Part shown: positions 10,118 through 54,011 of the stretch, piece by piece
Numbering within the stretch: the first letter of the stretch is position 1
Layout: the number at the start of each line of letters is the position of its first letter
Virus record (IMG/VR): IMGVR_UViG_3300043787_000046
Span: 4,833-68,832 of that record
DNA length: 64,000 nucleotides
Origin: a virus
Strand: one strand, 5' to 3'
The notes under the pieces: model-generated
What the model saw: only the letters and a program-made list of their open reading frames with translations
Database searches by the model: none
What the model was told of the DNA's origin: nothing
Position numbers and translations under genes: made by a program

Positions 10118-10507
10118 ATGCCCACGGCAATCGTAGGCGGCGGCAACAACGGCCCCCTTCAGGCGGAGTCCTCCGGCAACCCCGAGACGCTGAACGGCGT
10201 GCAGTCCCTCAACGCGGGCACCAGCACCGCCGGGTCCGCGCCGGTCCTTGCTCCCGCCTTCGCGGCCGGCACCGCAGCGCAGCTCAGCGATACGACCCGG
10301 GATTACATGGTTTACCTGGCCGTCACCACCTCGGGGACGGCGACTACGGTCGCGATCGGTCCCACGTCGACGCCGGCGAACACGATCCTGCCCAGCTCGT
10401 CCGTGACCGCAGGGCAGCTGATCAGCTTCCGCCTCCCGGCCGGCTGGTACGTGAAGTGGGCCGGGACGACCACGGCGATCGCCACGCAGACGGCTATCGG
10501 CTGCTAG
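10118..10507 (+). CDS. Putative virion structural/decoration protein
   Basis: Thr/Ala/Gly-rich beta protein, RBS GGAGG. Confidence 0.55.
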   Translation: MPTAIVGGGNNGPLQAESSGNPETLNGVQSLNAGTSTAGSAPVLAPAFAAGTAAQLSDTTRDYMVYLAVTTSGTATTVAIGPTSTPANTILPSSSVTAGQLISFRLPAGWYVKWAGTTTAIATQTAIGC

Positions 10508-10535
10508 CGGACGCCCCCGTTTTCAAGGAGGACCG

Positions 10536-10970
10536 ATGCCCCCTGCCCGCGCCGGTGTTCCCGAGCCGGGTTTCACCGCCACGCAGGAACTGTTCCGTGC
10601 CTGCGAGCTGACTCTTGCCGCCAGCTCCGACACGGTGACAGCGGACATCACGAACCAGGTCAGCCAGGCCGGCGGCGGCGTGATCGACGTGTCGTCGGTG
10701 TCCAACGGGCTGCTGGTCGTCGGCGTCGCCGCCGTGTCGGGCACGACGCCGGAGCTGGCGGTGTTCTTCGATGTCGAGGATGCGTACGGGAACTGGTGCC
10801 TGGTCAGCAACGCGACCGCGATCTCGGGTGCGACGCTGGGTTTCCCCGGCACCGTGTACGGCAACATCTCCGACGGCTACAGCCTGACTTACAACGGGCG
10901 GATCCGGTGGGTGCTGACGGGGACGTCCCCGGTGTTCAGCGGCGTGTCGTTCAGCCTGTTCGGGCGGTGA
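10536..10970 (+). CDS. Putative virion structural protein
   Basis: RBS AAGGAGG; beta-rich composition. Confidence 0.55.
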   Translation: MPPARAGVPEPGFTATQELFRACELTLAASSDTVTADITNQVSQAGGGVIDVSSVSNGLLVVGVAAVSGTTPELAVFFDVEDAYGNWCLVSNATAISGATLGFPGTVYGNISDGYSLTYNGRIRWVLTGTSPVFSGVSFSLFGR

Positions 10971-11189
10971 CGGGTGGGCGCGCGGTTCCTCGTCGTCCAG
11001 GTTGAGCGGGATGACGGGGAGCCCCGGCGGGGAGACCTACGGCCCGTGGGCTGCCGCCGCCGACGACTCGCACCTGGCCGCGATCGGCGAGTTCATCAGG
11101 AGCTGGCCGGAACGCTCCGGGGTGATGCCGGAAAAGGTGACGCTGGTTCTGTGCACCGACCCGGGCGCGTGGCTGGCAGGCGACAGCGG

Positions 11190-27806: not shown

Positions 27807-29005
27807 TGGCCGACTGGAAATACGCGGCGACGGACCTGCTCTCGGGGCAGCTGCTGTGCGACGACCTGCCGCTGGACGTGCAGTCGCTGAGCGCGAACCT
27901 CAACGGCACGGGCACGCTCAACGGCAGCCTGAACCTGAACGAGCTGCCCGCGGTGAACACCCCGTACATCACCGCGCTCACCCCCAGGCGCGCCGTCTTG
28001 TGGGCGCTCGCGGACGGGTGGCCGGTGTGGGCCGGGATCGTCTGGGACTGGCCGCAGATGTCCATGGCGCAGGGCACGCTCAGCATCAGCGCCCAGACAA
28101 TGGACTCCCTCTGGTCGCACCGGCTGATCACTGACACCCTGGAATACCCGGAAACCGACCTGTTCACCACCTTCCTGGACCTGGTCAGCTACGGGACGAG
28201 CAAGGACAGCTCCTATATCGAGACGGGCGTCTCACCCGCCCAGACCCGCGATCCTGCCTACCTGGCGATGTTCGCCACCCAGGGGAAGGTTGCCCGGCTG
28301 GCACTGCCGTCCGGCCTCACGTCCGGGGTCCCGTGGACCGCCAGCTACACGTACTCAGACCTGACGCAGGTCTCCAGCGCGTGGAGCGACATGACGGCGA
28401 GCGGGAACCTCGAGTACGTCTTCGCCGCCGGCCTCGACACCGCCGGGGAACTGACCGTGTTCCTGCAGCTCGGGTACACCGCGCTCGGCCGCCCCCTCGC
28501 CGACTCCGGGATCGTCTTCTCCTATCCGGGCAACTGCACCGACTACGGGTGGCCTGTCACCGGGTCGCAGTCGGCCAACATGATCTTCGCCACGGCACCC
28601 CCGAACGGCAGCGAGCTGACCTGGGAAAGCACCTACCCGCACGGGGCCGACACCTCCGACCTCGCGTCATTCCCGGTGCTCGAGTCGACGGTGAGCTGGG
28701 ACGGGTCGTACGTCACGAGCCAGTCGCAGGTCAACTCGTTCGCTGACGGTCAGGTCGCCCTGATGACCGCGGGGATGACCACGCCGACCGTGAACGTCGG
28801 AGGGGCCGGGTACCCGAGGCTGCAGAACGTACAGCTCGGGGACGGCTGCCTGCTGGCGATCACGTCCCCGCTGCATCCGCCGCAGGCGGACGGGTCGCCG
28901 GGTGTCCAGCAGGAGATGCGCGTCACCGGGTGGACCGCCTACCCTCCGGGGCCGCAGCAGGCAGAGTACGTCCAGTACAGCCTCAGCGGCGTGGTGGCGT
29001 CGTGA
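27806..29005 (+). CDS. Minor tail (hub-like) protein; contains the protospacer at 28204-28236
   Basis: ATDLLSG...LNGTGTL...PVWAGIVW; position in tail module. Confidence 0.7.
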   Translation: MADWKYAATDLLSGQLLCDDLPLDVQSLSANLNGTGTLNGSLNLNELPAVNTPYITALTPRRAVLWALADGWPVWAGIVWDWPQMSMAQGTLSISAQTMDSLWSHRLITDTLEYPETDLFTTFLDLVSYGTSKDSSYIETGVSPAQTRDPAYLAMFATQGKVARLALPSGLTSGVPWTASYTYSDLTQVSSAWSDMTASGNLEYVFAAGLDTAGELTVFLQLGYTALGRPLADSGIVFSYPGNCTDYGWPVTGSQSANMIFATAPPNGSELTWESTYPHGADTSDLASFPVLESTVSWDGSYVTSQSQVNSFADGQVALMTAGMTTPTVNVGGAGYPRLQNVQLGDGCLLAITSPLHPPQADGSPGVQQEMRVTGWTAYPPGPQQAEYVQYSLSGVVAS

Positions 29006-37038: not shown

Positions 37039-37890
37039 ATGACTGCTAGCGCGCAGGGGATCGATGTCTCGGCCTATCAGCCTCCGCTGACCCCGGCCGC
37101 CCTGGAAGGGCTCGACTTCGCGTTCTGCAAGGCCACGAACGGCGACCAGCTCGCGGACGCGAACTTCGCCCGGAACTGGGCGGCGGTGAAGGCGGCGGGC
37201 ATCCGCAGAGGTGCCTACCACGAGCTGGTGTCCCCGGCTGCGGCGTCCGGGCTGGTCCAGGCCCGGTACTTCCTGGCGACCGTGATCGCGGAGGGCCTGG
37301 AGGCTGGCGACATGCTGGCGGTCGTTGTCTCGGACTACCAGGGCGTGACGGACAGCGAAGTCAAAGCGTTCTGCGATTCTGTCCATGCTGCCGCCCCGGC
37401 TTCCCCGGTGCTGGTCTACTCGGACCTGACCGTGGCGAAGGCGCTGACCTCGTGCACCGGCTATGACCTGTGGGTGGCGTGGCCGTCAGCTACCGCCCCG
37501 GCGCTGGTCGCACCGTGGGGCACCTGGCGTTTCTGGCAGTGGGGTTCACCGGGGAACCTCGACCACGACGCGTTCAACGGGACGAGGGCGGAGCTTGACG
37601 CGTGGATCGCGGGGCGTGCGGGGAAGCCCGCGCCGGCCGGCCCGCGTCCCGTACCTGACTGGCAGGAGGCCATGATGCAGCAGCTACCCGAGGTCACAGC
37701 CGGAAGTGCCGACGCCGCCGCTGTGCGGACCGTACAGGGGCTCTGCGTCTCGCGAGGGCACCTGATCGCCGTCGACGGGGATTTCGGGCCTGTGACCCAG
37801 ATGGCGGTCAGGAACGTTCAGTCGGGCGCCGGGATCGTCGCCGACGGGGTGGTCGGGCCGGCGACCTGGCCTGTGCTGCTCGGGGTGTGA
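37039..37890 (+). CDS. Endolysin, GH25 muramidase plus peptidoglycan-binding domain
   Basis: GIDVSAYQ, KATNG, RGAYH, WRFWQW, VDGDFGP/ADGVVGPATW. Confidence 0.9.
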   Translation: MTASAQGIDVSAYQPPLTPAALEGLDFAFCKATNGDQLADANFARNWAAVKAAGIRRGAYHELVSPAAASGLVQARYFLATVIAEGLEAGDMLAVVVSDYQGVTDSEVKAFCDSVHAAAPASPVLVYSDLTVAKALTSCTGYDLWVAWPSATAPALVAPWGTWRFWQWGSPGNLDHDAFNGTRAELDAWIAGRAGKPAPAGPRPVPDWQEAMMQQLPEVTAGSADAAAVRTVQGLCVSRGHLIAVDGDFGPVTQMAVRNVQSGAGIVADGVVGPATWPVLLGV

Positions 37891-38537: not shown

Positions 38538-38823
38538 TCATGCCCGCCCGTCGCGACGGTAGAAGGTCACGGAGCGGTCAGAGCGGTCGGTGACGCGCAT
38601 CCACGGGTCGCCGTCGCCGGCTTCCATATCCCGCGCGCGCCCGGCGGGGATGGTGAGACGCCCGTCTCGATATAGGAGCTGTCCCCATATCCCGCGCGCG
38701 CCCGGCGGGGATGCCTCGCGAGTAGCTGACTTCGACTATCTGCCCCGTGTTGCGTGCGGGGGTGGTAAATACGATGCTGTCCGGGACTTCGGAGGCCGGG
38801 ACAGCGCGGTACGTCCAGCTCAT
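38538..38823 (-). pseudogene. 74-aa hypothetical gene frameshifted by a 61-bp insertion
   Basis: Removing one 28-bp copy plus the 33-bp insert restores MSWTY...RDMEAGDGDPWMRVTDRSDRSVTFYRRDGRA*, ending 1 nt before the next ATG; RBS GAGGAG. Confidence 0.85.
38624..38712 (-). CRISPR. Ectopic single-spacer unit: 28-bp duplication / 33-bp self-derived spacer / 28-bp duplication
   Basis: ccatatcccgcgcgcgcccggcggggat at 38624-38651 and 38685-38712; the insert at 38652-38684 is the exact reverse complement of 28204-28236. Confidence 0.9.
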
Positions 38824-38914
38824 CTGGTGCTCCTCGGGTTGCTCTTTGCTGACATCACCAATAATGCCGCAATGGAGCGCGCATGTCAACCGAAGTAGCG
38901 AAGCCACCGGGGAG

Positions 38915-39358
38915 TTAGCTGCCCCCGAGCACCTTCCAGATCTTCCGGGTCTCCGACGCCCTGGCGGCGGCTGCGCACGACCGCAGGGCACGCTCCTGCC
39001 GCTGCGCGAACTCCGGTGTGGCTTCGATCGCCGCGGCCCTCTGGACGCGCCACAGCCTCATCGGGGCGGCGCTGGAGACGTGCGGGTTCTTCACGTGCAG
39101 ATCCGGGGCGCCGAGCAGGTCCCGGATCATCGCCTCTGTCCAGCCGCGTTTCTTCAGCCCGGCCGCGCCGGTGCACTCGGTCGCCGCCTTGATCTCGGGC
39201 CACCGTTCACGGATGTCTTCTGCTGCCTCAGCCGACCAGCGTCCGCGCGGCCGGTCGGGTGCCGGGAGCAGCCCGAAGTCCCGCGCCCGGTCGACCTGGC
39301 TGTGCCAGGTGCCGAGATGGTCCGCTAGCTGGTGCGGCCCGTAATCACGCGACGGCAT
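38915..39358 (-). CDS. Hypothetical protein (possible DNA-binding)
   Basis: LKKRGWTEAMIRDLLGAPD..NPH..AAPMRLW motif. Confidence 0.55.
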   Translation of the reverse strand: MPSRDYGPHQLADHLGTWHSQVDRARDFGLLPAPDRPRGRWSAEAAEDIRERWPEIKAATECTGAAGLKKRGWTEAMIRDLLGAPDLHVKNPHVSSAAPMRLWRVQRAAAIEATPEFAQRQERALRSCAAAARASETRKIWKVLGGS

Positions 39359-39410
39359 AGAAGCCACGATAACGCCCCTCACTGACATTCCACCGACGAA
39401 AGGAACCCCC

Positions 39411-39695
39411 ATGACCGACACTGCCGGATCAGCCGCAGAGACACCGGGGCCGCTAGCGCACATCCGCTCCTGGTTCGAACGGGACATCGCCCCGGAACTG
39501 GCCGCCCTCCGCGCCGACGTGGCCAAGCTCCGCGAGGCCGCCCCGTCCCTGGCGACCGTCGCGACCACCCTCGAAACGGTCGTGAAGACGATCGACCCGG
39601 CCGCGTCCCCGGAAGTGGCAGCGGCAAGCGCCGCGCTCGGCGACGCCGTGAAGGTGATCACGCGGATCGCCGGGGAGCTTGCCCCTGGCATGTAG
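39411..39695 (+). CDS. Hypothetical helical protein
   Basis: RBS AAAGGAA; followed by terminator. Confidence 0.55.
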   Translation: MTDTAGSAAETPGPLAHIRSWFERDIAPELAALRADVAKLREAAPSLATVATTLETVVKTIDPAASPEVAAASAALGDAVKVITRIAGELAPGM

Positions 39696-39727
39696 GCACC
39701 GGACGCGGCCAGCAGCCCTCACGCATG

Positions 39728-39774
39728 CCGCCCCCCGCCGCCGGTCCTCGCGGACTGGCGGCGGGGGCGGTTTT
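39728..39774 (+). terminator. Intrinsic terminator
   Basis: Long GC hairpin ccgccccccgccgccgg...ctggcggcgggggcgg then TTTT. Confidence 0.65.
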
Positions 39775-39818
39775 CTGCGTTCCGGGATAAGGGCGATGCG
39801 GGACTACGATCTGTACCC

Positions 39819-40553
39819 ATGACGAGACTCAGCCAGATCATCGCCGTCGAGAAGGGCGTCAAGTCCGACGCCTCCCGGCGCATCACCGACCTGCACCGGG
39901 ACGTGCAGAAACCCCAGCTACTGTCCGGCATCTCGCGCACCTACCAGCCGCGCGCCGACGACGGCGACCAGCTCCCCGCAGAATCCACGAGGGTCCAGGC
40001 CACCGCGCCGGACGTGCTGGCGGAAGCCGCGGCGGCGATGACGCGGCTGTTCGACATCACGTTGACGAAGGACCACGCCAACACGGCGGCCCGCGCCGAC
40101 GTCACCGTCGAAGGGGAGACGATCCTGCGCGACGTGCCGGTCACCTACCTGCTGTTCCTGGAGAAGCAGCTCACCGACCTGCACACCTTCGTCGCCAAGC
40201 TCCCCGTGCTCGACCCCTCGGAAGAGTGGGCGTTCGACTCGGCGCGGGGCTGCTACGCGACGCCTCCCGTCAAGACGGTGCGCGGCAAGAAGATCCCCCG
40301 CAACCACACTCTCGCCGAGGCGACCAAGGAACACCCGGCGCAGGTGCAGGTGTACATGGAGGACGTGCCCGAGGGTGACTGGACGACAGTTAAGTTCTCC
40401 GGCGCCCTCCCCGCGTCGCGGGTCCGGACGCTGCTGGGCCGCGTCACGGCGCTCCAGCATGCGGTGAAGTTCGCCCGCGAGGAGGCCAACGGCGTCGAGG
40501 TCGCCGATCAGAAGGCCGGCGAGGCTGTCTTCTCCTGGCTGTTCGCCGCGTAG
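39819..40553 (+). CDS. Uncharacterised protein upstream of tRNA-mimic RNA
   Basis: 244-aa ORF MTRLSQIIAVEKGVKS...YLLFLEKQL...KFAREEAN with strong coding bias; function not recognised. Confidence 0.8.
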   Translation: MTRLSQIIAVEKGVKSDASRRITDLHRDVQKPQLLSGISRTYQPRADDGDQLPAESTRVQATAPDVLAEAAAAMTRLFDITLTKDHANTAARADVTVEGETILRDVPVTYLLFLEKQLTDLHTFVAKLPVLDPSEEWAFDSARGCYATPPVKTVRGKKIPRNHTLAEATKEHPAQVQVYMEDVPEGDWTTVKFSGALPASRVRTLLGRVTALQHAVKFAREEANGVEVADQKAGEAVFSWLFAA

Positions 40554-40559
40554 ACTTCT

Positions 40560-40886
40560 CCGCGAGCGCAAGCTGAAACTGAAGATCACACCTGAATCAG
40601 GTACGCCCGGACCAAGCGGAGGTTCGACTCCTCCCCGGCCAACTCGATGGCCGGTAGCCCACCCGGTAGAGGCATCCGGCAACCGCCAGGCTCAGATTCT
40701 CGCTCCAGGCTCAGCATTGCCGCTTAACGCCAGATCGACCGACCGCAGGCAACGCTTCCGGAGGTTGAGGGTTCGAGCCCTTCCGGCGCCTCCACGTGGC
40801 GCTGTAGCTCAATAGGCAGAGCACCGGGCCTGAGAGATGACCTGCGGTCTTAAACGCCGCTGGCGTGCGCAGATGGGCGGATACAA
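40560..40886 (+). ncRNA. Structured ncRNA with two circularly permuted tRNA-like modules
   Basis: Modules 40607-40679 and 40758-40827: T-arm, loop-closed acceptor stem, D-arm; enclosing long-range stems. Confidence 0.75.
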
Positions 40887-40918
40887 GAGCCCCCGGCATC
40901 GGGTAATGCCGGGGGCTC
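40887..40918. terminator. Hairpin closing the ncRNA (possibly bidirectional)
   Basis: gagcccccggcat-cgggta-atgccgggggctc 13-bp stem. Confidence 0.65.
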
Positions 40919-41026
40919 ACTCCATTCCTCGTGGCCCCGTACGGCACGAGGGGGGGTGTGCCGTACGGGGCCGGCACCGGGGCGCTCATCAGACGCGCCG
41001 GGCCGCGTGCAGGTTGCCTTACCGGA

Positions 41027-41595
41027 TCAGCCCGGATCAGGCCGTGCCGGAATCCCGACGCCGAGCAGCGCGGTCACGATCGCATCGAGCGCAGACGGGA
41101 CAGTACCGGAGACGCCGGGTTTCCCCGGCCCCGGGTACGTGACCGATGTCCGCACGTCGTCCTGGCCGCGCACCTGCGCCGCGCTGTAGGTGATCCCGGC
41201 GCGGTCCACTGCGAGCATGGTCCGCGCTTCGATCCGGTCGGGGCGCATGTGCAGCCGGTGCGCCCTGGCGTCCGCCCTGATGCCGTCGGTCTCCGGCGTT
41301 CCCGGCGCACCCTCGGCAACCATCCATGACTCGCAGCGGAACGCCGCGCCGTGCAGCCCTTCCGGCGCATGCGCCTGGAGCAGCGGGCCGAAGTCGCCGA
41401 GACTGGCGGCCATGTACGCCAGGACCAGAGGGGGCCGGTCCTGCGCCCAGAACGCGGGAGGTACCGGGATTTCCCGGATCCGGGGCTCCCCCCCCGCAGG
41501 TACAGGAAGTACAGCCCGGGGGCCTCGTCCCACCCGGTGCGGCTCTTGATCTCCGCAGCGAGCGCGCCGGCGATGATGTCCGGGATGCGTGCCAT
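41027..41595 (-). pseudogene. Hypothetical gene frameshifted at a G8 tract
   Basis: MARIPD...YLRGG continues as EPRIREIPVPP... in another frame at C8 (41488-41495). Confidence 0.6.
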
Positions 41596-41647
41596 GGGTC
41601 CCTTCCTCCTTTCGTTGCTGTCTTCCGGACGCCCCCGCGCGGGGGGC

Positions 41648-41941
41648 TCACCGTGTTCCCGGACGCGGCCTGACCATCAGCGTCAGCCCCTCGAAGTCCG
41701 CCGCCGTCCACCGTCCCGCCCCGGCCGTCAGGATCTCGCAGCCTTGCTCCCTGCCCCGGTCAGTGACCACCATGACCGCCGACCCTCCTTGCAGGACGCC
41801 GAACCGGACCCGGCGCCACAGGTGCTCCCGGACACGCCGCGATACTTTCCCGGTGAACACGCCCGGGGCGATCTCCAGGAGCCACCGGGACAGGTCGCCG
41901 CGCAGCCCCGGCGGCACCGAAGTGAGGACAAGGACGATCAC
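41648..41941 (-). CDS. cas2: Type I-E CRISPR-associated Cas2
   Basis: MIVLVLTSVPPGLRGDLSRWLLEIAPGVFTGKVSRRVREHLW, EQG, DFEGLTL. Confidence 0.95.
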   Translation of the reverse strand: MIVLVLTSVPPGLRGDLSRWLLEIAPGVFTGKVSRRVREHLWRRVRFGVLQGGSAVMVVTDRGREQGCEILTAGAGRWTAADFEGLTLMVRPRPGTR

Positions 41942-42942
41942 GGCCCGTCCTCCCCGTAGCTGACGCCGCCCGGCACAGTGCCGTGGTCGTCGATCAGGTC
42001 CGGCACCGCGATCCCCGCGACTGTCTCGCCGTCATCTCCGGGGGCGCCGAGCAGTCCCCGGATGTCATCGGCGATGCGGGGCAGCAGCCGCGCTGAGACG
42101 ATCGCGTCCCGCACCGCGCGCCTGGTCTTAGCCCCGAGATCCCGGCCGCCTTCCGCGGCGATCCCGAACGCCGCCGGGATCGTGACCTCCGCCTTGTACA
42201 GGTCCGCGATGTCGTACACGAAGGACAGCTGGTGCCCGGTGTGGACGAATCCGAGCCCTGGACTGCACCCGAGGTGCAGGATCGCGGCGTGGGTGATGCC
42301 GTAGAGGGCGGAGTTCGCGGCCGACAGGCACCTGTTCACCGGGTCACCCGCGCTCCAGTCCTTCGGGTCGTATCTCCGGCCGCGCCATGCGGTGCCGGTT
42401 TTCTCTGCGTGCAGCCGGTAGCAGGCGCGGACCCGGGCGCCTTCCCGGCCGCGCAGTTGCTGCATGCTCAGCCGGGAGACATCCTCGCCGGGGAACCGCA
42501 TCGCGTACATCTGCCGGGCGACGGCGATGCGGGTTTTCTGCCCGGTGACGAGCGCGGCCTGCCGTTGCAGCAGCACCGACGATGCCGCTGCTGCCGTGGT
42601 GCCGGCGTAGAGGCGGACGCCTTCCTCGCCCACCCACGCGACGGTGCACCCGCTGCCGGCCAGGAGCGAGATGGCGGCGTGGGTGATCGTCACGCCGGGG
42701 CCGAGGAGAAGCGCCGCGAGCACAGCAGCGGGGATGCTCGCGACCCCTTCGGCTTGCCAGATGGTGACTGCGTTCAGGTCGCGGTCGATCCTTGCATGCT
42801 CAACGTGCAGGAAGCTGAGCCGGTCGCTGATGCGGCTGAGTTCCGTCGCTTTGGCCGGTAATGCGCCTTTCATTTGTCGCGCTCCCCTCTGCCAGTCAAG
42901 GAACCCGCCGCCCCCTGGACCCTCCTGCAACTCGGCCGTCAT
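41938..42942 (-). CDS. cas1: Type I-E CRISPR-associated Cas1
   Basis: LLLGPGVTITHAA, WVGEEGVRLYA, LRGREGARVR, LGFVHTG, SFVYDIADLYK. Confidence 0.97.
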   Translation of the reverse strand: MTAELQEGPGGGGFLDWQRGARQMKGALPAKATELSRISDRLSFLHVEHARIDRDLNAVTIWQAEGVASIPAAVLAALLLGPGVTITHAAISLLAGSGCTVAWVGEEGVRLYAGTTAAAASSVLLQRQAALVTGQKTRIAVARQMYAMRFPGEDVSRLSMQQLRGREGARVRACYRLHAEKTGTAWRGRRYDPKDWSAGDPVNRCLSAANSALYGITHAAILHLGCSPGLGFVHTGHQLSFVYDIADLYKAEVTIPAAFGIAAEGGRDLGAKTRRAVRDAIVSARLLPRIADDIRGLLGAPGDDGETVAGIAVPDLIDDHGTVPGGVSYGEDGP

Positions 42943-43027
42943 CCCGCGCGCCAGATTCCGGGTCGGCCAGACCCGGATCTGCGGGCCGCGCCTGCTAATG
43001 CCGGACAGGCGCCCCTTGCTGACCAGA

Positions 43028-43782
43028 CCGTCGCCCCTGCGGGCCGCACGCGTGGCTCCTTGCCTCGATTACCCACCTTGTACCGCCGTCCCCGCGCCCG
43101 CAGGCCGGCACGACGAAGGCACTAACACCCAGCAAAATATCAAACCGTCGCCCCAGCGCCCGTGGGCCGCACATCGCGCTGCTGGCCGTGCCCGGCAGCG
43201 TCATCCCGTCGCCCCAGCGCCTGTGGGCCGCACTCCGGCGTGCGTTTCACCCCGGTGCCCGGTGGCCCGTCGCCCCAGCGCCCGTGGGCCGCACCTGGCG
43301 TCACGGACGATGTAGCGGGCCGACCTCCCGTCGCCCCAGCGCCCGTGGGCCGCACACAGCACGCTGTTGCCAGTCCCGAGTTCTCAGACCGTCGCCCCAG
43401 CGCCCGTGGGCCGCACACGAAGCCTCGATCGCGAACGCGGCACGCCGGTCCGTCGCCCCAGCGCCCGTGGGCCGCACACCAACCGCTCATGGTGGGGGCT
43501 GCGCCTTGGCCCGTCGCCCCAGCGCCCGTGGGCCGCACCTTCGGCCTCCATCACCATCTGAGTCAGGTTCACCGTCGCCCCAGCGCCCGTGGGCCGCACC
43601 TCCCGTCCCTAGCCAACCGACGGGCCGACATACCGTCGCCCCAGCGCCCGTGGGCCGCACCACATTCTGAGCAAAGAGTAGCAATGTTCATTCCCGTCGC
43701 CCCAGCGCCCGTGGGCCGCACGCCATCTCGATGGCGCAGGATATGAGCGGTGTCCCGTCGCCCCAGCGCCCGTGGGCCGCAC
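43028..43782 (-). CRISPR. CRISPR array: 13 repeats (11 intact or near-intact, 2 degenerate), 12 spacers of 33 bp
   Basis: Repeat GTGCGGCCCACGGGCGCTGGGGCGACGG (28 bp, minus strand), 61-bp period from 43145 to 43755; degenerate copies at 43028 and 43083 mark the trailer end. Confidence 0.97.
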
Positions 43783-43844
43783 CCTGTCCTCATCAGGTGT
43801 TCTCTCGCCGGCTGTTACGTCAGCCGGGACGCATCATTCGCGGA

Positions 43845-44081
43845 TCACCAGGCCAGCGTCCAGTAGCCGCAGAACATGGCACCGAGGAGGACGCCGGGCC
43901 AGTTGCCGCCGGCCACGGAGGCCAGGGTCAGGACGGCGCCCGCCAGGTAGGCCAGCACGGCGAAGGCCCCCGCCAGCACGGGGTCATGACCGTTGAGTGC
44001 CGCATGGATGATGCAGCAGCCCAGGGCGGCGACGGCCATCATGAGCGGGACCTCCGCTGTCGCCACCAGTCCAGCGGCCAT
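43845..44081 (-). CDS. Small membrane protein
   Basis: Hydrophobic ORF; start uncertain. Confidence 0.45.
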   Translation of the reverse strand: MAAGLVATAEVPLMMAVAALGCCIIHAALNGHDPVLAGAFAVLAYLAGAVLTLASVAGGNWPGVLLGAMFCGYWTLAW

Positions 44082-44293
44082 ATCACCGACAGCACGGCGT
44101 TCTCGGCAGCGGCAACCCAGTCCCCCGACAGCAGGCAGGCGGGGACCAGGATCCAGCTCGTCACGGCCAGGATGCCCGAGGACCAGTACTCAAGGTCGCT
44201 GAGGCCGCGCACCCACGCGACGATATTCACCGCCAGCGCACCCAGGCCGCCGGCAATGCAAAAGGCGGCGCCGCCGACGAGCAGCCCGTTCAC
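44039..44293 (-). CDS. Small membrane protein
   Basis: Three hydrophobic segments. Confidence 0.5.
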   Translation of the reverse strand: MNGLLVGGAAFCIAGGLGALAVNIVAWVRGLSDLEYWSSGILAVTSWILVPACLLSGDWVAAAENAVLSVIWPLDWWRQRRSRS

Positions 44294-44565
44294 TGCCCGC
44301 TCCCGGTGATATCAGGGGCGTAGTACTCGGTCAGCGGGACCGGACCCGTATAGCGGACGCAAGCGCACTCGCCATCCCCAACCGCTACCTGACACTCGCC
44401 CGTCTTCGGGTCGTGCATCGAGTAATGGTGGGTGCAGCCGCATACAGGCCGGGGCTGCTCCAGCGCGGGAAGCTGCCGGGTCCGTTGCCCCAGGACCCAG
44501 CCGACGATGACGCCGAGCGCGACCTGTATTCCGCTCACGAGGATGATCGCCAGCACGCTGACCAT
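44290..44565 (-). CDS. Small membrane-anchored Cys/His protein
   Basis: TM segment plus CGCTHHYSMH...CACVRY. Confidence 0.55.
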   Translation of the reverse strand: MVSVLAIILVSGIQVALGVIVGWVLGQRTRQLPALEQPRPVCGCTHHYSMHDPKTGECQVAVGDGECACVRYTGPVPLTEYYAPDITGSGQ

Positions 44566-45556: not shown

Positions 45557-46018
45557 CTAGGTCGCCCGGCCGGGGGTCCCGGCCGGGTCGTCTTGTGTGT
45601 GCCATCCGAGGAACCGGGCCTGCTCGTCATGCATCCCGTCCGGCGCGGCCGTGAACCATCCCGCGTCCAGCGCCCCGGCCACCGGCACCGGATCCCCGTC
45701 CCAGTCCGCCTCGAACGCCGCCCCCACCGGGGTATCGGTGCCCTCCAGGTAGTGGGACGGGTACTCGATGAACCCTGCGTGGCGGGAGGCTGTGACGGTC
45801 ACGCCGAGTTTGTCCCGCGCGACGCGTTCCACGGCCTGGTGCAGCGGTTCGGCGAAGCGGACGGTGCCGCCGGGGATGTGCCAGCGGCCGGCGCACGGCC
45901 CTGAATCGCGGCGGGTGAGGAACACGCCGCGGTGGTCGCGGAGGATGACCTCCACGGTCAGGCGCGGGACGCGGGCGTAGATCGCGTCGAATTCCTCCGT
46001 GGTGAGGGGATGGGTCAC
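45557..46018 (-). CDS. NUDIX hydrolase (GDP-mannose hydrolase-like)
   Basis: VPRLTVEVIL...WHIPGGTVRFAEPLHQAVERVARDKLG (atypical NUDIX box). Confidence 0.7.
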   Translation of the reverse strand: MTHPLTTEEFDAIYARVPRLTVEVILRDHRGVFLTRRDSGPCAGRWHIPGGTVRFAEPLHQAVERVARDKLGVTVTASRHAGFIEYPSHYLEGTDTPVGAAFEADWDGDPVPVAGALDAGWFTAAPDGMHDEQARFLGWHTQDDPAGTPGRAT

Positions 46019-46929
46019 CGTGCCGCCTTGACCGCAGCCCGGTACGCGGCGAGCGCAGGCGGGTCATTTTCCAGCCGCCAGTCCTGGTGATAGACGCCCT
46101 TGTCCTGCTTCTCGTCGAACCACACCAGGCCGAGCAGCTTGTCTGCCTTCACCCCGGCGAACAGGCCTGTGATCTGCGCGTCACGGTCAGCCGTCGTCCC
46201 CACCGCGGTCTCCGCGATCAGGACCGGGGCGGTGGTGAACTTCCGTACCTGCGCGACGGTCGCGCCGAACACCGACGCGAAGGTGTCGGTGGAGTAGTAG
46301 TAATAGCCGTCGATCCCGACCCAGCCGACGTAGGCGGATCCTGGCCACCACTGGCGCAGGGAATCCGTGGCCACGTTGGTTGAGTTGACAGTCCACATCC
46401 ACGTCACGTTTGATGCGCCGACGGCGCGGAAGACGCCCACGACGTGCCGCCATGCCGCGATGTATACGGCGGGAGCGGTGTGACCGGCACCCCAGGGGTA
46501 CCAGCCTCCGTTCATCTCGTGATCGAAGCTGAGGACCACCGGATGCCCGTACGCCTTCACCGAGAGGGCGTAGGCCCGCAGGAAGGCGTCGAAGCGTCCC
46601 GCCGTGATCCCCGCCAGCGGCTCGCGGCCGGACTGGATCTGGACGAACGGGACCGCGCCGTGAGCGTGCGCCTGCGCGGCGAACCCCGCGGCGAACCGCT
46701 CGAACCACGCCGAGTAGTAGAGGGCCAGCTCCGGCGCGGCGCCAGTCGCCGCAGCGAACCGGGTGATCCCGGCATAGGAGGCGGGGGCGCCGGGCTCGTA
46801 CACGCCGTTGAGGGAATCCGGGATCGCGGGGATCGTCACCGGGCGAGGGGCCGGCGGGACAGGTGCCGTCGCCGCGCAGCCTGTGAGGGCGGCGGACAGG
46901 GCGATGCCTGCGAGGGCGGCGAGTTTCAC
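46015..46929 (-). CDS. GH26 glycoside hydrolase lipoprotein
   Basis: Lipobox LTGC; HEMNGGWYPW, WWPGSAYVGWVGIDGY, VLIAET. Confidence 0.85.
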   Translation of the reverse strand: MKLAALAGIALSAALTGCAATAPVPPAPRPVTIPAIPDSLNGVYEPGAPASYAGITRFAAATGAAPELALYYSAWFERFAAGFAAQAHAHGAVPFVQIQSGREPLAGITAGRFDAFLRAYALSVKAYGHPVVLSFDHEMNGGWYPWGAGHTAPAVYIAAWRHVVGVFRAVGASNVTWMWTVNSTNVATDSLRQWWPGSAYVGWVGIDGYYYYSTDTFASVFGATVAQVRKFTTAPVLIAETAVGTTADRDAQITGLFAGVKADKLLGLVWFDEKQDKGVYHQDWRLENDPPALAAYRAAVKAAR

Positions 46930-48464
46930 GAGACGTCCTTTCCGGGGAATGCGATGCGGCCGATGATGACCGCGTTGACGATGCCGAAGGCGGCGACGAT
47001 GGCGAACCGGTCGCTGCCGGTCTGCGCGATGCGCCAGGCGGCGAGGGCGAGCCACGCGACGGCCAGCGTCCCGTTCCAGGCGACGAGGCACTTGCGGAAG
47101 CGCCGCGCGGCGTCTTTCGGGCCGCGGGTCGGCTGCCACGACATGACGTTGCCGCGGGCGAAATCCCACAAGGCGAGGGCCTGCGCCCAGCCGACGGCGA
47201 TGGCCAGCGGCCATGTCCCGAGCGGCCACTTCGTGTTGTGCCACAGCGGGTACAGCACGGTGCCGGTGATGACGGCGGGTATGAGCAGCAGCGCGTTGCG
47301 GAGCTGGATCTCGGCGGGCAGGAACGCCAGCAGGACCACGGGGATCAGCGGGATGATGACGGTGCGCAGTGCAGTGGTGAAGTTCCACATCCACCCGGCG
47401 ACGTACGGGAGCCGCGACTTCCAGGGCATCGGCACCCGCCACATGTGCTTGGTCCACACCAGGGACGTGGCTCCGCAGCACCACCGGTACTGCTGGCCCA
47501 TGAACTTGTCGATGCCGGACGGGCACACCCCGGCCGCCAGCGGGACGGGCAGGTACTTCAGCGCGTAGCCGGCCCGCCTCGCGTCGAGCCCGGTGTGGGA
47601 GTCCTCCGCGTACGGGATGAGAGTACAGCCGCCCACGGCCTCGAGCGCGGCACGGCGGTAGACGGCGTTGGACCCGACGCACAGCGCCGACCCGAACCGG
47701 TCGCGGGACTGCTGCACCGACCGGTAGAAGACCTCCAGCGTCGCCGCTGCGGCCTTCTCCACCCACGTCTGCCCCTTGGCGACGCGGAAGTACTGGGGGG
47801 TCTGCACGATCCCGGTCGCAGGGTCGTCCATGTACGGCAGCGTCTCGGCGAGGAAATCGGGGCGGGGCCGGAAGTCCGCATCGAAGATCACGATGTGCTC
47901 GCCGCGGGTCCGGGCGAACGCGTGCCGGATGTTCCCCGCCTTCTTGTGGATCCGCTCGGAGCGGCGTCCGTACCCGAAGCCGACCCGGCGCGCCAGTGCG
48001 GCCACGCCGTCGTCGTGGGCGTCGTCGAGGACGTACGGGCGCACGTCGCCGGGGTAGGAATCGCGCATCTCCGCGACGCCCTCCCACGTGTTGGCCAGCA
48101 CCGCGAGCGGCTCCCCGCACACCGGCAGGAACACGTCGACGTCCGGGTAGCGCTCCGGCTGCCAGGTCATCACCCGCAGCTCGTGCTCTTCGAGGTCGAA
48201 GCTGCCCCCGGTGAAGTTCACCGGGACGGACAGGCACTGGTAGGCGAGGTAGGCGAGCGTGTAGACGGCGAACGGCAGCGCAACCAGGTACTTGGCCTCA
48301 AGCCACGCCTGGGCGATGATGATGCACAGGGCGCTGACGGTGATCGCGCCGGTCAGCAGCGGAAGCGAGCGCCACGCGTACGACGTCTTCTCGTCGGCGT
48401 CCGGAGCAGAGGGAAGGATCAGGCTCCGGGCTGACCGGTGACGCCCGGCAGCAGCCGCGGTCAC
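46926..48464 (-). CDS. GT2 cellulose-synthase-like membrane glycosyltransferase
   Basis: VDVFLPVCGE, KKAGN, IFDADF, QTPQYF, AED, QQYRW; several TM segments. Confidence 0.9.
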   Translation of the reverse strand: MTAAAAGRHRSARSLILPSAPDADEKTSYAWRSLPLLTGAITVSALCIIIAQAWLEAKYLVALPFAVYTLAYLAYQCLSVPVNFTGGSFDLEEHELRVMTWQPERYPDVDVFLPVCGEPLAVLANTWEGVAEMRDSYPGDVRPYVLDDAHDDGVAALARRVGFGYGRRSERIHKKAGNIRHAFARTRGEHIVIFDADFRPRPDFLAETLPYMDDPATGIVQTPQYFRVAKGQTWVEKAAAATLEVFYRSVQQSRDRFGSALCVGSNAVYRRAALEAVGGCTLIPYAEDSHTGLDARRAGYALKYLPVPLAAGVCPSGIDKFMGQQYRWCCGATSLVWTKHMWRVPMPWKSRLPYVAGWMWNFTTALRTVIIPLIPVVLLAFLPAEIQLRNALLLIPAVITGTVLYPLWHNTKWPLGTWPLAIAVGWAQALALWDFARGNVMSWQPTRGPKDAARRFRKCLVAWNGTLAVAWLALAAWRIAQTGSDRFAIVAAFGIVNAVIIGRIAFPGKDVS

Positions 48465-50245
48465 TTTGAGGCCCCTTCCCGGACCCAGATCCGGAATGCG
48501 CTCTGCCATCCCGCCACCCGGTACGGGAGCACCGACACCAGCCGGTAGCCGCCGTAAGCGCGGATGTCGGCACTGATCTCTACGTCAACGGGCTGCGAGT
48601 CGGAGAACGACAGTGCGACGACGGAGAAGTACCGGTGCCGGACCGCATCCGCGAACCCGGGAGCGTCGACAAGGTGCTTGCCCGTCTCCGGATCCCGGTA
48701 GTCGAAGAACCATGGCCCGTAGAAGACAACGCCCCCGGCCTCGCCGGGCAGGTAGTACTCGATCACGTTGCCGTTATCGGCCGCCAGCACCGGCCCCCGC
48801 TCGCCAGCCAGGACTGTCCGCAGCTTCGCCGTGAATTGCGCGCTGTCCGGCCATGACCCGAAATGAGTCGCGGCCAGCGCAGCACCCAGCAGCGCGGCCC
48901 CCGCAATCGCCCCTCCAGCAGCCCGGAGTGCGCTGTGGCGCTTCGCTGCGGGCACCGCATCGGCCAGCGACGCGAGCGCGTATCCCGCAGCGGCCGCAGC
49001 GAACCACGCCCCGAACCCCACGTGCTTGAACAAGCTGGTGAACACGTGAATCCGGGCCTGGTTCGCAGGTGCGAGGATGATGGCGCCAGCCAGCACCCAC
49101 GTGGTCAGCCTCAGCGGCAGGTCGCGGCTCCGGACGGTCATGATTACCGCGCCGAGCGCGGCGAGGACCCCCGCTACGCCAACCCAGCCGAGGCTGTCCG
49201 CGGCGATCCCGGCCGCCGACGACGACCCGTGAGCGCGGCCCAGGGTGGTGAATGTGATGCCCCGCCAGTAGGGATGCCCTGCGAGCTCCAGTGCGGCGGC
49301 GACAGCAGCGGCGAGCACCGCTGCGCACAGGGCACCTGCGGCGACGCCGGCACGGAGGCCTCGCGCCCGCCACGCGAGCAGGATCACCAGTGCGACCACC
49401 ACTGGATTCCAGAGGGCTGCCGCATACTTCGCCGCGTCGGCCACCGCCAGCACTGCCCCGCAGCTACCTGCGATCCCGAAGGCCGCGACGGCGGAACCGC
49501 GTTCGGCCGCCTTTACAGCAAGCCATGCGGCGAATGCCAGCAGCGTCAGCGCCATCGAGTCATAAGTGGCGAACGCTCCGAGGAACTGCGTCGCCGCAGT
49601 TGCCGCGAACATGCCCGCCGCAAGCAGAGCCGCACGCCGGCCGAACAGGCTCCGCGTTAGCGAGTGCAGGAGACATGTCGCCGTCAGCATGAAGCACAGG
49701 GACAGGATCCGGGCGCCGGCCAGTCCGCCGAGAGAGTCGGCTAGCGCGCCGACCGGCGGATACACGACCGGGGCTCCGGAGAAATACGTCGGGAAGGCGG
49801 GCAGCGGCGCGCCGTGCAGCCAGTGCGCCCACTCCAGGTGCCCGGCCCACAGGTACAGCGCCTCGTCGGGGAACGCCGTGTTCGACCAGATGAGCCTTAG
49901 CGACAGCGCCGCCTGAACGATCAGGATCAGTCCCAGCGCGACCGCGGACCGGCTGACCCGGTGAATCCCCGTCCGGAACACGCCCCGGTGCTGCAAGAAC
50001 GGGGACGCCGAGGGCGCGCGGTCAAGCCGCTGCGTCTCACCCAGCGCCTCCAGTACCGCGAGCGAGTCAAGCTGGTCCCCGGTCACCGGTCCCGTGTACG
50101 GCACGTCCGGCACCGGCGTCATCCGTCCCCGCCGTACCAGCTCCGCCAGTTCCTCATGCGGGCCGAGGGCGATCTGCTGCCCCGTCGCCGGGAAGTCGTC
50201 GTCCCGTGCGGCCCGGAAGCCGTTCGGCAGCGTCGGGGCGCTCAC
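48461..50245 (-). CDS. ArnT/PMT-like (GT-C) membrane glycosyltransferase
   Basis: FPDEALYL..G, AGARILSL, ATYD, AKY motifs; many TM segments. Confidence 0.75.
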   Translation of the reverse strand: MSAPTLPNGFRAARDDDFPATGQQIALGPHEELAELVRRGRMTPVPDVPYTGPVTGDQLDSLAVLEALGETQRLDRAPSASPFLQHRGVFRTGIHRVSRSAVALGLILIVQAALSLRLIWSNTAFPDEALYLWAGHLEWAHWLHGAPLPAFPTYFSGAPVVYPPVGALADSLGGLAGARILSLCFMLTATCLLHSLTRSLFGRRAALLAAGMFAATAATQFLGAFATYDSMALTLLAFAAWLAVKAAERGSAVAAFGIAGSCGAVLAVADAAKYAAALWNPVVVALVILLAWRARGLRAGVAAGALCAAVLAAAVAAALELAGHPYWRGITFTTLGRAHGSSSAAGIAADSLGWVGVAGVLAALGAVIMTVRSRDLPLRLTTWVLAGAIILAPANQARIHVFTSLFKHVGFGAWFAAAAAGYALASLADAVPAAKRHSALRAAGGAIAGAALLGAALAATHFGSWPDSAQFTAKLRTVLAGERGPVLAADNGNVIEYYLPGEAGGVVFYGPWFFDYRDPETGKHLVDAPGFADAVRHRYFSVVALSFSDSQPVDVEISADIRAYGGYRLVSVLPYRVAGWQSAFRIWVREGASK

Positions 50246-50835
50246 GACGCGGCCCCCTTCCGCATGTAAGCGGTCAGGTAGCAATGGATGCCCCAGTGGC
50301 TGACGTGCTGCGGAGCGACGCCGGACTCTTCCCATTCGGCGTCAAGCAGCTTGAAGAACTCGTCATCAGCGGCGCACCCGCCTTCCGGCTCTCCCGCGAA
50401 GATCAGCAGGTCACCGTCGTAGCAGGCCAGGGACTGCGCTGCCCCCGTCTCCACGACGCCCTTCCCGCCGAGGATGTCCCGCATCCACGCGATATCCCCT
50501 GGCGACGGAATCGACCAGGAGAACGTCCGGCAGAGGGAGAACCGGTCAGCGAAGACGCGGAGATCGTTCCCCGGCGTGCCCGTGAACAGGTGCGTCATAG
50601 GCTCGGGCCGCGTTTCCCGCGGGAACGGTATGTCCGACAGCGGGAGCTGGCGGATGATTTCCCAGTACGGGTTCCGGGTCCCGACCGGGACTTCCTGATC
50701 CCATTTGCCGCCGGCGATCCTGGCGGGGATGTTGCGCGAGTAGTGGTCCGGTTCCGGATCCTGCCACCACGCGGCGAGTTCCGCTAGCAGGGCATCCGCG
50801 TCGACGGGGTCCGCGTTCCATCCGGCCGCGCTCAC
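50242..50835 (-). CDS. Methyltransferase-like hypothetical protein, apparent internal deletion
   Basis: FSWSIP...GVVETGA then directly YDGD..I..GE..GGC. Confidence 0.45.
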   Translation of the reverse strand: MSAAGWNADPVDADALLAELAAWWQDPEPDHYSRNIPARIAGGKWDQEVPVGTRNPYWEIIRQLPLSDIPFPRETRPEPMTHLFTGTPGNDLRVFADRFSLCRTFSWSIPSPGDIAWMRDILGGKGVVETGAAQSLACYDGDLLIFAGEPEGGCAADDEFFKLLDAEWEESGVAPQHVSHWGIHCYLTAYMRKGAAS

Positions 50836-52033: not shown

Positions 52034-52609
52034 GTGACATCAGGGCGGGAAAGCGGTGACGAGTGGTTCGGCGCGAACCTCCGCGCCGGGAGAGACCGGC
52101 TGGGCATCGGCCAGCGCGAGCTGGCACGCCTCATGACCGAGGACGGCCATGCGTGGTTCCAGTCGACCGTCGCCCGCGCCGAGGCCGGCCGCCAGGCGGT
52201 GCGCGTCATGGAAGCCGCGTCGCTGGCCCGCATCCTCGCGACCACGGTCGACATGCTGACCAGGCCCCCGCCCGAGACCGCGGCACTCATGATGGCCGAC
52301 CACGCTCTCGGGCGCCTGCACTCGGGCCGCGCGCAGGTGATCCGGTCGGTCGCGGCATACCTGCGCGCCAGGGACGGCGCCGTACGGGCGGTCAGTGCCG
52401 CGCAGGACAGCCCGTACGAGAGCGTCCGCGGCCAGGCCGCCGAGCTGGCCGCCGAGCTCGGCGAGGGCGGCCTCGACGAGGCGGTAGAGGACGGCATCTG
52501 GAAGTACGAGCACCCCGAGGGGGCCGAAGACGATGACGGAGACGGGACCGGGACCGAAGCGGACACGGAAAGCGAACCTGGAGTCGTGGGTCAGCCAGGT
52601 CCCGAATGA
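52034..52609 (+). CDS. XRE-family HTH repressor
   Basis: FGANLRAGRDRLGIGQRELA...QSTVARAEAGRQAV. Confidence 0.8.
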   Translation: MTSGRESGDEWFGANLRAGRDRLGIGQRELARLMTEDGHAWFQSTVARAEAGRQAVRVMEAASLARILATTVDMLTRPPPETAALMMADHALGRLHSGRAQVIRSVAAYLRARDGAVRAVSAAQDSPYESVRGQAAELAAELGEGGLDEAVEDGIWKYEHPEGAEDDDGDGTGTEADTESEPGVVGQPGPE

Positions 52610-54011
52610 CCGCGGCTACTACGAGGCCAAGGTCTGGATGGGGATCAAGCCTGACGGGAAACCGGACCGCCGCCACCTCCAGCGCAAGTCCCTCCCTCAA
52701 CTCAGGAAGGCGGTCCGCGTACTGGAGAACAGGCGCGACGCAGGCCAGGGCGGGAAACCCGGCAAGCTCCCCACCGTGGAGGAGATGCTCACCCGGCACC
52801 TGGCCGTCGTCCTGCCGGCCAAAGGGCGCGCCCCGCGCACGATCTCCGACTACTGGTCGAAGTGCCGCAACGACATCTTCCCCCGGTGGGGCGGCTGCCG
52901 CATCGACCGGCTGCTCCCCGAGTGGCTCGAGGACGGCTACGCCGACATGCTCGCCGCAGGCCACGCACCCTCGCACGTCGTCAAGGTCCACGTCATCCTC
53001 AGCTCCGCCTATAAGGTCCAGGCTGAGCGCTCCCAGAAGTACGGCCTCGCCGGCGGGACGGTCATCGTGAACCCGTGCGACTATGTCGACCCCCCCGAGC
53101 TGTCGGCGACAGAGAAGAAATCACTGACCAAGAGGCAGGCGCGGGCCGTCCTCGCCCAGGCGGAGAAAAGCGGGAACTGGCTCCGGTGGGCCTATGGCAT
53201 GTCGGTCGGCAACCGGCAGGGCGAGGTACTCGGGCTCCGCTGGGAGTACATGAACATCGACGTTCCCGAGGGAGAGCCCGGCGAGGCGAGGATCTCCTGG
53301 CAGCTCCAGCGGCTCACCTGGGAGCACGGCTGCGCTGACGAGACGGAGAAGGCGCTGCGGAAGAAGGGGGCGGCCAAGGCCGAGACCGATAAGGCCGCGG
53401 CGAAACGGCGCCACGAGTGCGCGGCAAAGCACTGCAAGAAGAAACCGTGCCCGGCCAGGTGCAAGAAGCACACCAGGGCGTGCCCGTCGCCGTGCCCGGA
53501 TGACTGCGAAAGCCACGCCCGCGACTGCCCGGACCGCAAGCTCCCGCAGGGCTGCGTCCCGGTGTCCGGTGCCCTCGTGCTGCGCGAGATCAAGGAGAAG
53601 CGCCGCGCCAGGGTCAAGACCGTCCCCATCCCCCCCGAGCTGTGCGCGCCGTTCCGTGAGCACCGGGAGAAGCAGTTCGAGGCGAAGATGCTCGCCGGAT
53701 CCGAGTGGACGGAGCACGACCTCGTCTTCACCCGGTGGAACGGGAGCCCGGTCGACCCGCGGCAGGACTGGGAGGAGTGGAAGCGGCTGCAGGAGGCCTC
53801 GGGCGTCGCGCACCGCGGCGTCCACGGCACCCGGCACACCGCCGCGACCCTCGCCGTCGATGAAGGGGTCGCGATCACGGTCGTCAAGGAGATGCTCGGC
53901 CACTCCGACATCCGCGTCACGGAGGGTTACATCGAGACTGCGTCGCCTCAGGCGCAGCGGGCGGCGCGGACGATCGGGAAGGCTCTTTTCGGGAGGGACT
54001 CGGGGACGTGA
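52533..54011 (+). CDS. int: Tyrosine integrase
   Basis: GNRQGEVLGLRW, HGTRHT, MLGHSDIRVTEGY catalytic motifs. Confidence 0.95.
   Translation: MTETGPGPKRTRKANLESWVSQVPNDRGYYEAKVWMGIKPDGKPDRRHLQRKSLPQLRKAVRVLENRRDAGQGGKPGKLPTVEEMLTRHLAVVLPAKGRAPRTISDYWSKCRNDIFPRWGGCRIDRLLPEWLEDGYADMLAAGHAPSHVVKVHVILSSAYKVQAERSQKYGLAGGTVIVNPCDYVDPPELSATEKKSLTKRQARAVLAQAEKSGNWLRWAYGMSVGNRQGEVLGLRWEYMNIDVPEGEPGEARISWQLQRLTWEHGCADETEKALRKKGAAKAETDKAAAKRRHECAAKHCKKKPCPARCKKHTRACPSPCPDDCESHARDCPDRKLPQGCVPVSGALVLREIKEKRRARVKTVPIPPELCAPFREHREKQFEAKMLAGSEWTEHDLVFTRWNGSPVDPRQDWEEWKRLQEASGVAHRGVHGTRHTAATLAVDEGVAITVVKEMLGHSDIRVTEGYIETASPQAQRAARTIGKALFGRDSGT

Follow-up and report, generated by a model that had tools for sequence, protein, structure and literature searches.

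Here we describe a CRISPR locus on a temperate soil actinophage that has a writer and a memory but no cutter in its 68.8-kb record. The phage is IMG/VR record IMGVR_UViG_3300043787_000046, a single linear record of 68,832 bp; its positions 4833-68832 form the stretch of 64,000 nucleotides (nt) that we analysed, henceforth the window, to whose numbering all coordinates refer unless another sequence is named. We think, with a probability of roughly 0.6, that the locus is the array and adaptation half of an actinophage-borne type V-N-like (Cas12n-associated) system without its nuclease. It is best filed as an effector-less variant of type V-N-like systems, on phages, with a borrowed type I-E adaptation module. 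As the window has no Cas12n gene, we file it as a derivative of the V-N family and not as a complete member.

The module lies on the minus strand in the order leader, array, cas1, cas2. The array (43112..43782) comprises 11 repeats of 29 nt, which span 43782 down to 43144, and 32-nt spacers at a period of 61 nt; ten spacers lie between the 11 repeats and the newest spacer is at the 43782 end. Ten of the 11 repeats are identical over their first 28 nt, the other has a single G>A change, and the 29th base is G in six, T in four and A in one. On the cas1-proximal side, a trailer (42990..43111) contains two degenerate repeat units and a twelfth spacer; spacers 11 and 12 are flanked by these degenerate repeats, and repeat decay towards cas1 is common to the related loci L088, L089 and L009. 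The leader (43783..43844, 62 nt) reaches from the stop codon of an upstream open reading frame (ORF) of 78 amino acids (aa) to the first repeat and holds a perfect 7-bp palindrome (CCGGCTG..CAGCCGG); a consensus scan found no sigma-70-like promoter near the array or leader. The I-E-like cas1 gene (41938..42873) specifies 311 aa if translated from the ATG at 42873. This is the likely start, because homologues cover 93% of the longest ORF (41938-42942), and it is preceded by a GGGGAG ribosome-binding site. The I-E-like cas2 gene (41648..41941, 97 aa) overlaps the cas1 stop codon by 4 nt. Both were recognised by Pfam and PADLOC (Cas_Cas1 2.2e-16 and Cas1e 8.5e-128 for cas1; Cas_Cas2CT1978 5.4e-29 and Cas2e 1.7e-33 for cas2). 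Residues E144, H211, D221 and D224 of Cas1 are invariant in all 31 of the 31 related sequences aligned, and we take these to be the positions of the catalytic residues of E. coli Cas1. The preliminary description of this DNA, made from its letters and ORFs, had reported a short leader (~60 bp), a 12-spacer array and then intact cas1 and cas2; this layout is borne out, with the count of 12 including the two decayed units.

The same description had seen no effector genes, and none was found in the full record. A six-frame search of the 68,832 bp returned no Cas7e, Cse1, Cas6e, Cas5, cas3_core or Cas3_HD. As controls, Cas7e and Cas6e were found in G003, G007 and G008, and Cas5 in G003; the tests for Cse1, cas3_core and Cas3_HD are weak, as the first two models missed the control G003 and the third had no control record. 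For the TNB zinc-ribbon domain of Cas12 and TnpB proteins, nothing in the record was better than E 0.96, and tblastn of the record with the nucleases of two loci introduced below (L108 and L006) gave no match. PADLOC identified no Cas family among the 73 other ORFs of at least 70 aa, which came from a custom GC3-based gene caller; the only matches were PDC-S07, twice, and mad1, once.

To place the adaptation genes, we compared 96 loci with relatives of Cas1e, including the window, taken from scans of metagenome and IMG/VR contigs (some overlap on one contig). The array lies only downstream, after cas2, in 75 of these and directly upstream of cas1 in seven (the window, L009, L089, L008, L088, L090 and L006); the remaining 14 have an array on neither side, mostly because too little sequence is available. 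In a quick IQ-TREE phylogeny of 121 rows, a starred clade (97*/96*) unites the window, L009, L089, L008 and L088 with 17-21 proteins whose context is unknown. All canonical loci and every cultured actinobacterium fall apart from it, in a clade of 89 rows (100*). Next to that canonical clade L090 forms a long branch, and L006 is an outlier. All five members of the window's clade with visible context have the array upstream of cas1. A Cas1 phylogeny had been proposed in the preliminary description as a check for a phage-specific clade, and the tree answers it with a separate, uncultured clade whose members with visible context lie beside phage genes: tape measure and endolysin genes by cas2 in L009, a tape-measure-like gene in L088 and an endolysin gene in L089. 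Beyond cas1 and cas2 (and the lysin in the case of G002), the backbones of these relatives share little with the window phage. Metagenomic homologues of this Cas1 are numerous (62-99% identity); among named cultured actinobacteria the identity mostly lies at 52-60% and does not exceed ~62%, and one metagenome-assembled genome labelled Streptosporangiaceae reaches 70%. In L008, a 1.7-kb metagenome contig, one 32-nt spacer occurs four times in a row (positions 1-270), which is probably an assembly loop by way of the repeat.

The repeats likewise differ from those of canonical type I-E arrays. The window repeat is identical to those of L124 and G005, two nuclease-encoding loci described below, at 24 of 29 positions and to that of L008 at 25 of 29, against 19 of 29 at most for the four canonical I-E repeats compared. 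Almost all canonical arrays for which the full repeat was recovered show a perfect 6-bp stem and a GGGG(A/G)TGA(T/G)CC end. The window, L088 and L090 have this stem (canonically CCCCGC..GCGGGG) in degraded form, and a hand comparison of the last 8 nt of the window repeat with canonical actinobacterial repeats gives ~4 differences. The preliminary description had credited the repeat with only a bulged hairpin. The fold of the window repeat (-10.7 kcal/mol) is not better than those of its shuffled versions (z +0.57, from a folded string offset by 2 nt from the true repeat), as is also the case for the L088 and L090 repeats and their own shuffles. Among 185,579 representative genomes, no array has the exact 24-nt core of the repeat, the sole match being a chance one outside any array, and the whole array gave only partial matches to the phage collection (E 0.06-0.7), which we take as chance. 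The degraded stem fits a system that depends on a trans-activating CRISPR RNA (tracrRNA).

An indication of what the missing effector may have been comes from loci with related arrays. G005, an IMG/VR record of 132,427 bp (CheckV completeness 100%) that was found with a pattern of two clade repeats, is a relative of the window phage (63% identity in the portal, 75% in a capsid-like protein and 74% in GT2). Its array is of the window's kind and in the corresponding position; it has five repeats, identical to those of G001 and G002, and is adjoined by the same GT2-GH26 cassette as in the window. Directly upstream of this array is a gene for a 494-aa protein that matches PADLOC Cas12u4 over its whole length (7e-107). 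Among solved structures its best match is 9J09 (4.4e-43, compared with 2e-31 for ISDra2 TnpB), which is RdCas12n according to the available part of PMC12216341. Neither Cas7e nor Cas6e was found in G005, and Cas3_HD gave nothing above the cut-off. In G006 (locus L006), a 595-aa protein (Cas12u4 1.4e-143; 9J09 1.1e-60) is followed by eight repeats and then a cas1e-like gene; this locus had been a candidate for a further effector-less case and was dropped on account of the Cas12n-like ORF upstream of its array. A scan of IMG/VR with an alignment of the G005- and G006-type proteins identified 14 distinct Cas12n/TnpB-like loci, five of which (G005, L123, L124, L128 and G006) have an array of 61-nt period 100-200 nt downstream. 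L124 is likewise tied to the window's clade: a protein 54% identical to that of G005 precedes an array of 7-8 repeats and then a cas1 fragment, and the 23 best matches of this fragment all lie within the window's Cas1 clade.

Where G005 and L124 have the nuclease, the place is taken in the window by three small ORFs that overlap (78, 84 and 91 aa; 43845..44565, minus strand), a peptidase A4 gene and a NUDIX gene. The three ORFs occupy the site of the Cas12n-like gene and scaffold RNA of the relatives, and none has a Pfam or PADLOC family. A scaffold motif, AACTCAA.AG, lies 22-60 nt before the first repeat in L108, L124 and L006, and the window leader holds nothing comparable. We also considered the leader as a remnant of a nuclease scaffold RNA and dropped this idea, since the leader gave no alignment with the pre-array scaffold regions of L108, L006 and L118.

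Some further features of these loci were noted in passing. In L108, the 17-codon cas1 remnant (~370-420) is followed by an excisionase-like helix-turn-helix (HTH) gene. L108 (881-2365) and L118/L119 (5001-6452) encode proteins that are 56% identical and share a downstream RNA-like scaffold (GGGCGTCCCC, a hairpin and AACTCAA.AG); L108 with its array and L118/L119 without one might together capture the transition from TnpB to Cas12. L093-L097 had been taken for another effector-less group until L094 and L095 proved to encode a Cas12f-like protein by cas1. In these two (7769-11118 and 8139-11016, respectively) the Cas12f-like gene (PADLOC Cas12_x2 5e-158 and 2e-211) is followed by Cas1e- and Cas2e-like genes and an array, making them another type V lineage with an I-E-like adaptation module.

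The spacers give some information on what the system selects and whether it has been active. The 68.8 kb of the phage itself hold no match to any of the 11 main-array spacers (best off-array match 15 nt). The exact spacers 5 and 10 are absent from IMG/VR, and 30 spacers from six arrays (L009 contributing one only, as the pattern caught a single repeat) match their own arrays alone in all collected sequence; neither cross-targeting nor a spacer in common was seen. Two protospacers were provided by contigs of other sequencing runs. Spacer 10 occurs with non-array flanks in a contig of run X5, where AAA lies directly 5', and spacer 5 together with the last repeat G occurs in an RNA-library contig of run X16, where the preceding AA makes AAG (one gap, depth 2.4). 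No X16 RNA contig covers cas1, cas2 or most of the array, which has no bearing either way. Spacers 2 (43661-43692) and 11 (43112-43143) have 38% and 44% G+C, compared with 70% for the phage, so at least some spacers derive from DNA of much lower G+C content.

A third protospacer came from the phage itself. At 38624..38713 (plus strand), outside the array, a perfect 29-bp duplication with its copies 61 bp apart surrounds a 32-nt spacer, and the source of this spacer is a 33-nt exact match in the phage's own minor tail gene (28204..28236, minus strand) with a CTT flank (AAG on the opposite strand). Exactly these 61 bp are missing from a contig of run X10 (depth 4.7, 29 nt ambiguous), so the off-array insertion is polymorphic. 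In run X10, moreover, one repeat is followed by a different spacer, the tail of cas1 has an in-frame deletion of 9 nt, and a 35-nt variant of the trailer stretch occurs. The polymorphic insertion and the differences in the array between samples suggest recent spacer integration in this phage lineage, and Cas1-Cas2 may thus still be active. The off-array integration could be the work either of the phage's own Cas1-Cas2 or of a host type I-E enzyme. Nivala, Shipman and colleagues have reportedly described non-canonical, off-array spacer integration by Cas1-Cas2; the present case resembles it in having a 29-bp duplication and a 32-nt spacer at a repeat-like site outside the array, and differs in being a natural event in a phage gene that is polymorphic between samples. 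On the strand of the minor tail gene, the final base of the spacer is C and the next two are TT. This is how an AAG-flanked 33-nt fragment looks after insertion in flipped orientation, by analogy with the flipped insertions of the Streptomyces avermitilis type I-E system, which has eight cas genes (available part of PMC4762764). All three protospacers found are thus preceded by 5'-AAN (AAG, AAA and flipped AAG). That no main-array spacer is self-derived, although phage DNA has served as a spacer source, hints that some nuclease reads the main array.

These data bear on the interpretation offered in the preliminary description, which had the phage write its own spacers and borrow host Cascade or a distant effector for competition between elements, or else gave the module a non-interference role. 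In its host-Cascade form, this reading is of an adaptation-only type I-E module whose CRISPR RNAs host Cas6e would process, for host Cascade-Cas3 to use against competitors. Cas1 and Cas2 do score as Cas1e and Cas2e, and the window shares with canonical type I-E systems (E. coli K-12; S. avermitilis, available part of PMC4762764) the 29-nt repeats, the 32-nt spacers, flipped insertions, an AAG protospacer-adjacent motif (PAM) and a 33-nt prespacer whose PAM G ends up as the repeat's final base. One AAG protospacer, with its G taken into the repeat, is what S. avermitilis type I-E shows in the same source; L008 has a canonical hairpin; and the main array, being free of self-targeting spacers, looks as if some interference machinery reads it. 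On the other hand, no cas3, cse1, cse2, cas7, cas5 or cas6e was detected in the 68.8-kb record, the array is upstream of cas1 instead of downstream of cas2, Cas1 belongs to a separate clade, and the hairpin of the Cas6e type is degraded, being no better than shuffles in the window and in two of the other upstream-array loci. Nor does the 3' end of the repeat follow the canonical form, the exact repeat core is found in no array of the representative genomes, and it is a Cas12n-like gene that stands at the leader of the clade-linked loci. Because clade, array-first order, repeat identity, 3' end and hairpin all differ from canonical type I-E, we consider borrowing of host Cascade very unlikely. 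The plain type I-E label is not supported either, since the Cas1 clade is separate, the repeat is nearer to G005 and L124, and the array-first order is that of the Cas12n-like loci.

A different possibility is that the locus is a decaying remnant that has lost its nuclease and whose array and cas1-cas2 have no interference role, with spacer integration at most a side activity. The related loci are indeed broken in different ways (cas1 is reduced to 17 codons in G005, cas1-cas2 are internally deleted in L124, and no cas1 is present in the available sequence of L123 and L128), and one self-derived spacer is tolerated at the off-array site. However, cas1 and cas2 of the window are full length with the four presumed catalytic residues invariant, close variants with 86-99% identity persist in other samples, the repeats are near identical and the array differs between samples. 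The lack of self spacers (0 of 11), with phage DNA available as a source, would also be unexpected without counter-selection. On balance, we regard a functionless remnant as unlikely.

Several observations weigh against assigning the window locus to a V-N-like family. No available locus pairs an intact Cas12n-like gene with an intact cas1-cas2 of the window's clade. In G005, a junction homologous to the one in L089 comes after the array, and then the 17-codon cas1 remnant; the fragment in L124 (~6100-6700) consists of the first ~92 cas1 residues and an internal deletion into the C-terminal part of cas2; and G006, in which nuclease and adaptation genes are both intact, has a Cas1 outside the window's clade. 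The closest relatives of the G005 protein, in L118 and L119 (56% identity), have no array, so a TnpB carried by an insertion sequence may simply have landed beside an array. In L108, the best repeat anti-repeat duplex is ~2.3 standard deviations below the local mean, which is not significant, and the L008 repeat folds well into a perfect I-E-type hairpin. AAG is also the type I-E PAM, and hence the PAM cannot separate I-E from V-N. The contigs of G001, G002, G004, L009 and L008 end inside the array, leaving the leader side unseen. Finally, CheckV estimates the completeness of the 68,832-bp record at ~55%, and the comparisons across runs depend on single assembled contigs with depths of ~2-6.

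CRISPR loci of viruses and prophages are reportedly treated by Faure (2019) and Medvedeva (2019), and Cas12n by Chen et al. (Mol Cell, 2023). Cas12n, an actinobacterial nuclease, recognises a 5'-AAN PAM, and the tracrRNA that it uses overlaps the ORF of the nuclease (available parts of PMC12216341 and PMC11641405). The loci described here resemble type V-N (formerly V-U4; Rothia dentocariosa RdCas12n, 9J09, and Actinomadura craniellae AcCas12n) in their high-G+C actinobacterial setting, in the position of the array downstream of a TnpB-like nuclease of 400-700 aa in G005, L124 and G006, in that RdCas12n is the best structural match of both proteins tested (G005 and G006), in the AAN PAM of three out of three window protospacers, and in repeats without a strong hairpin. 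They differ in that the window has neither a Cas12n gene nor a recognisable scaffold or tracr region, and in that these systems are phage-borne and combine I-E-derived Cas1-Cas2 with 29-nt repeats and 32-nt spacers. The available parts of PMC12216341 and PMC11641405 describe no adaptation module of this I-E-derived kind for Cas12n. Adaptation modules have been acquired by Cas12 lineages on at least 12 occasions, with the array lying downstream of cas12 (available part of PMC10691335). Phage CRISPR loci, by comparison, mostly lack adaptation genes and keep arrays and/or effectors (available parts of PMC11656645 and PMC7145637), which agrees with the statement in the preliminary description that most phage loci are without cas1-cas2. 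The window locus resembles such virus arrays that use host Cas proteins in that it cannot act alone and has a likely role in conflict between elements; it differs in that those keep the array and/or effector without cas1-cas2, the reverse of what we see here, and in that its exact repeat core occurs in no representative-genome array. In the literature available to us we found neither a phage with an array and cas1-cas2 but no effector nor a Cas12n with an I-E-derived module on actinophages, although Chen et al. 2023 and the V-U4 supplements of PMC10691335 may already describe Cas1-Cas2 next to Cas12n.

We therefore favor a model in which Cas1-Cas2 of type I-E ancestry would constitute the spacer-acquisition half of a phage-borne V-N-like family whose full layout would be nuclease gene and scaffold or tracr RNA, array, cas1 and cas2. 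The nuclease and its RNA are missing upstream of the array in the window phage, and from the whole 68.8 kb. Transcripts of the array would then guide interference only if a Cas12n-like nuclease and a matching tracrRNA were supplied from elsewhere; they might come from the host, from a co-resident prophage or from a part of the phage genome that is not in the assembly. An I-E-type Cas1-Cas2 that chooses AAG would presumably feed such a Cas12n usable spacers. One could take this model further and suppose that writer phages (array and active Cas1-Cas2, no nuclease) and reader phages (nuclease and array but cas1-cas2 lost, as in G005 and L124) split a single system, with immunity to third parties arising only when both meet in one cell, through polylysogeny or co-infection, or recombine at the shared locus. 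This extension is speculative and we think it unlikely.

The module is embedded in a phage genome. On one side of it, the record encodes a large terminase, a portal, a tape measure, minor tail proteins and, at 37039-37890, a GH25 endolysin that carries a peptidoglycan-binding domain; on the other, an HTH protein and a tyrosine integrase (52533-54011) are followed by leftward early genes. Phage genes on both sides had been noted in the preliminary description, and this proved correct. Besides the CRISPR module, the accessory region holds genes for a peptidase A4 and a NUDIX protein as well as a glycan cassette (GH26, GT2, PMT-like). No tRNAs and no terminal repeat were detected in the record, and megablast of window positions 30-50 kb against phage and plasmid collections gave no match. 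As the module sits inside the contig, between lysis genes and integrase and away from the contig edge, it is not in a host flank. It might nonetheless be an artefact, either a misassembly or a very recently captured host fragment, which the preliminary description had named as grounds for withdrawing its reading; arrays often break metagenome assemblies, and the contigs of five relatives end inside arrays. Against this, both junctions are reproduced by contigs of other runs: record 2 of run X1 corresponds to 38685-43171, and contigs of X1 and X5 continue from the first repeat into the upstream ORFs on the leader side (X1 may itself be the source sample of the record). The G+C content is uniform along the window at ~70%, L009, G001 and G002 (with lysis or tail genes) and G005 (with the glycan cassette) hold the module or array as well, and the Cas1 clade is distinct from host loci. 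We consider an artefact extremely improbable.

Other features of the phage are as follows. The portal (L001 4283-7201; up to 2369 in the window) has a C-terminal NUDIX fusion that matches PADLOC PDC-S07, as does a second NUDIX gene at 45557-46018. The glycan cassette (45557-50335 in the window, 6211-10673 in G005) adjoins the CRISPR array in both phages, and its GT2 and PMT-like proteins are 74% and 52% identical between the window and the 132-kb phage. Downstream of cas2, a 168-aa ORF (within 40920-41675) is swapped for 29 other letters in a contig of run X10 and is therefore a variable gene outside the module. Within the stretch compared, the depth of the RNA-library contigs is greatest (26.7) over 40478-40873, at the 3' end of a DUF7873 gene and in the non-coding DNA that follows; in this interval, a 95-nt segment of run X10 is diverged.

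The window locus reverses the phage pattern in the available published accounts, in which arrays or effectors are kept and Cas1-Cas2 are missing. It brings to light an uncultured clade of I-E-like Cas1 proteins tied to small Cas12n-like nucleases on actinophages, and with it a natural example of a TnpB-like nuclease with a borrowed adaptation module, in which the choice of AAG by the writer would fit the AAN PAM of the nuclease. The loci together form a natural series of partial versions, with the effector only, the writer only, or both. Evidence from the field suggests recent spacer integration in the phage lineage, which can be tracked in soil metagenomes. These loci may therefore have a bearing on how type V systems gain adaptation and on how mobile elements share immune parts.

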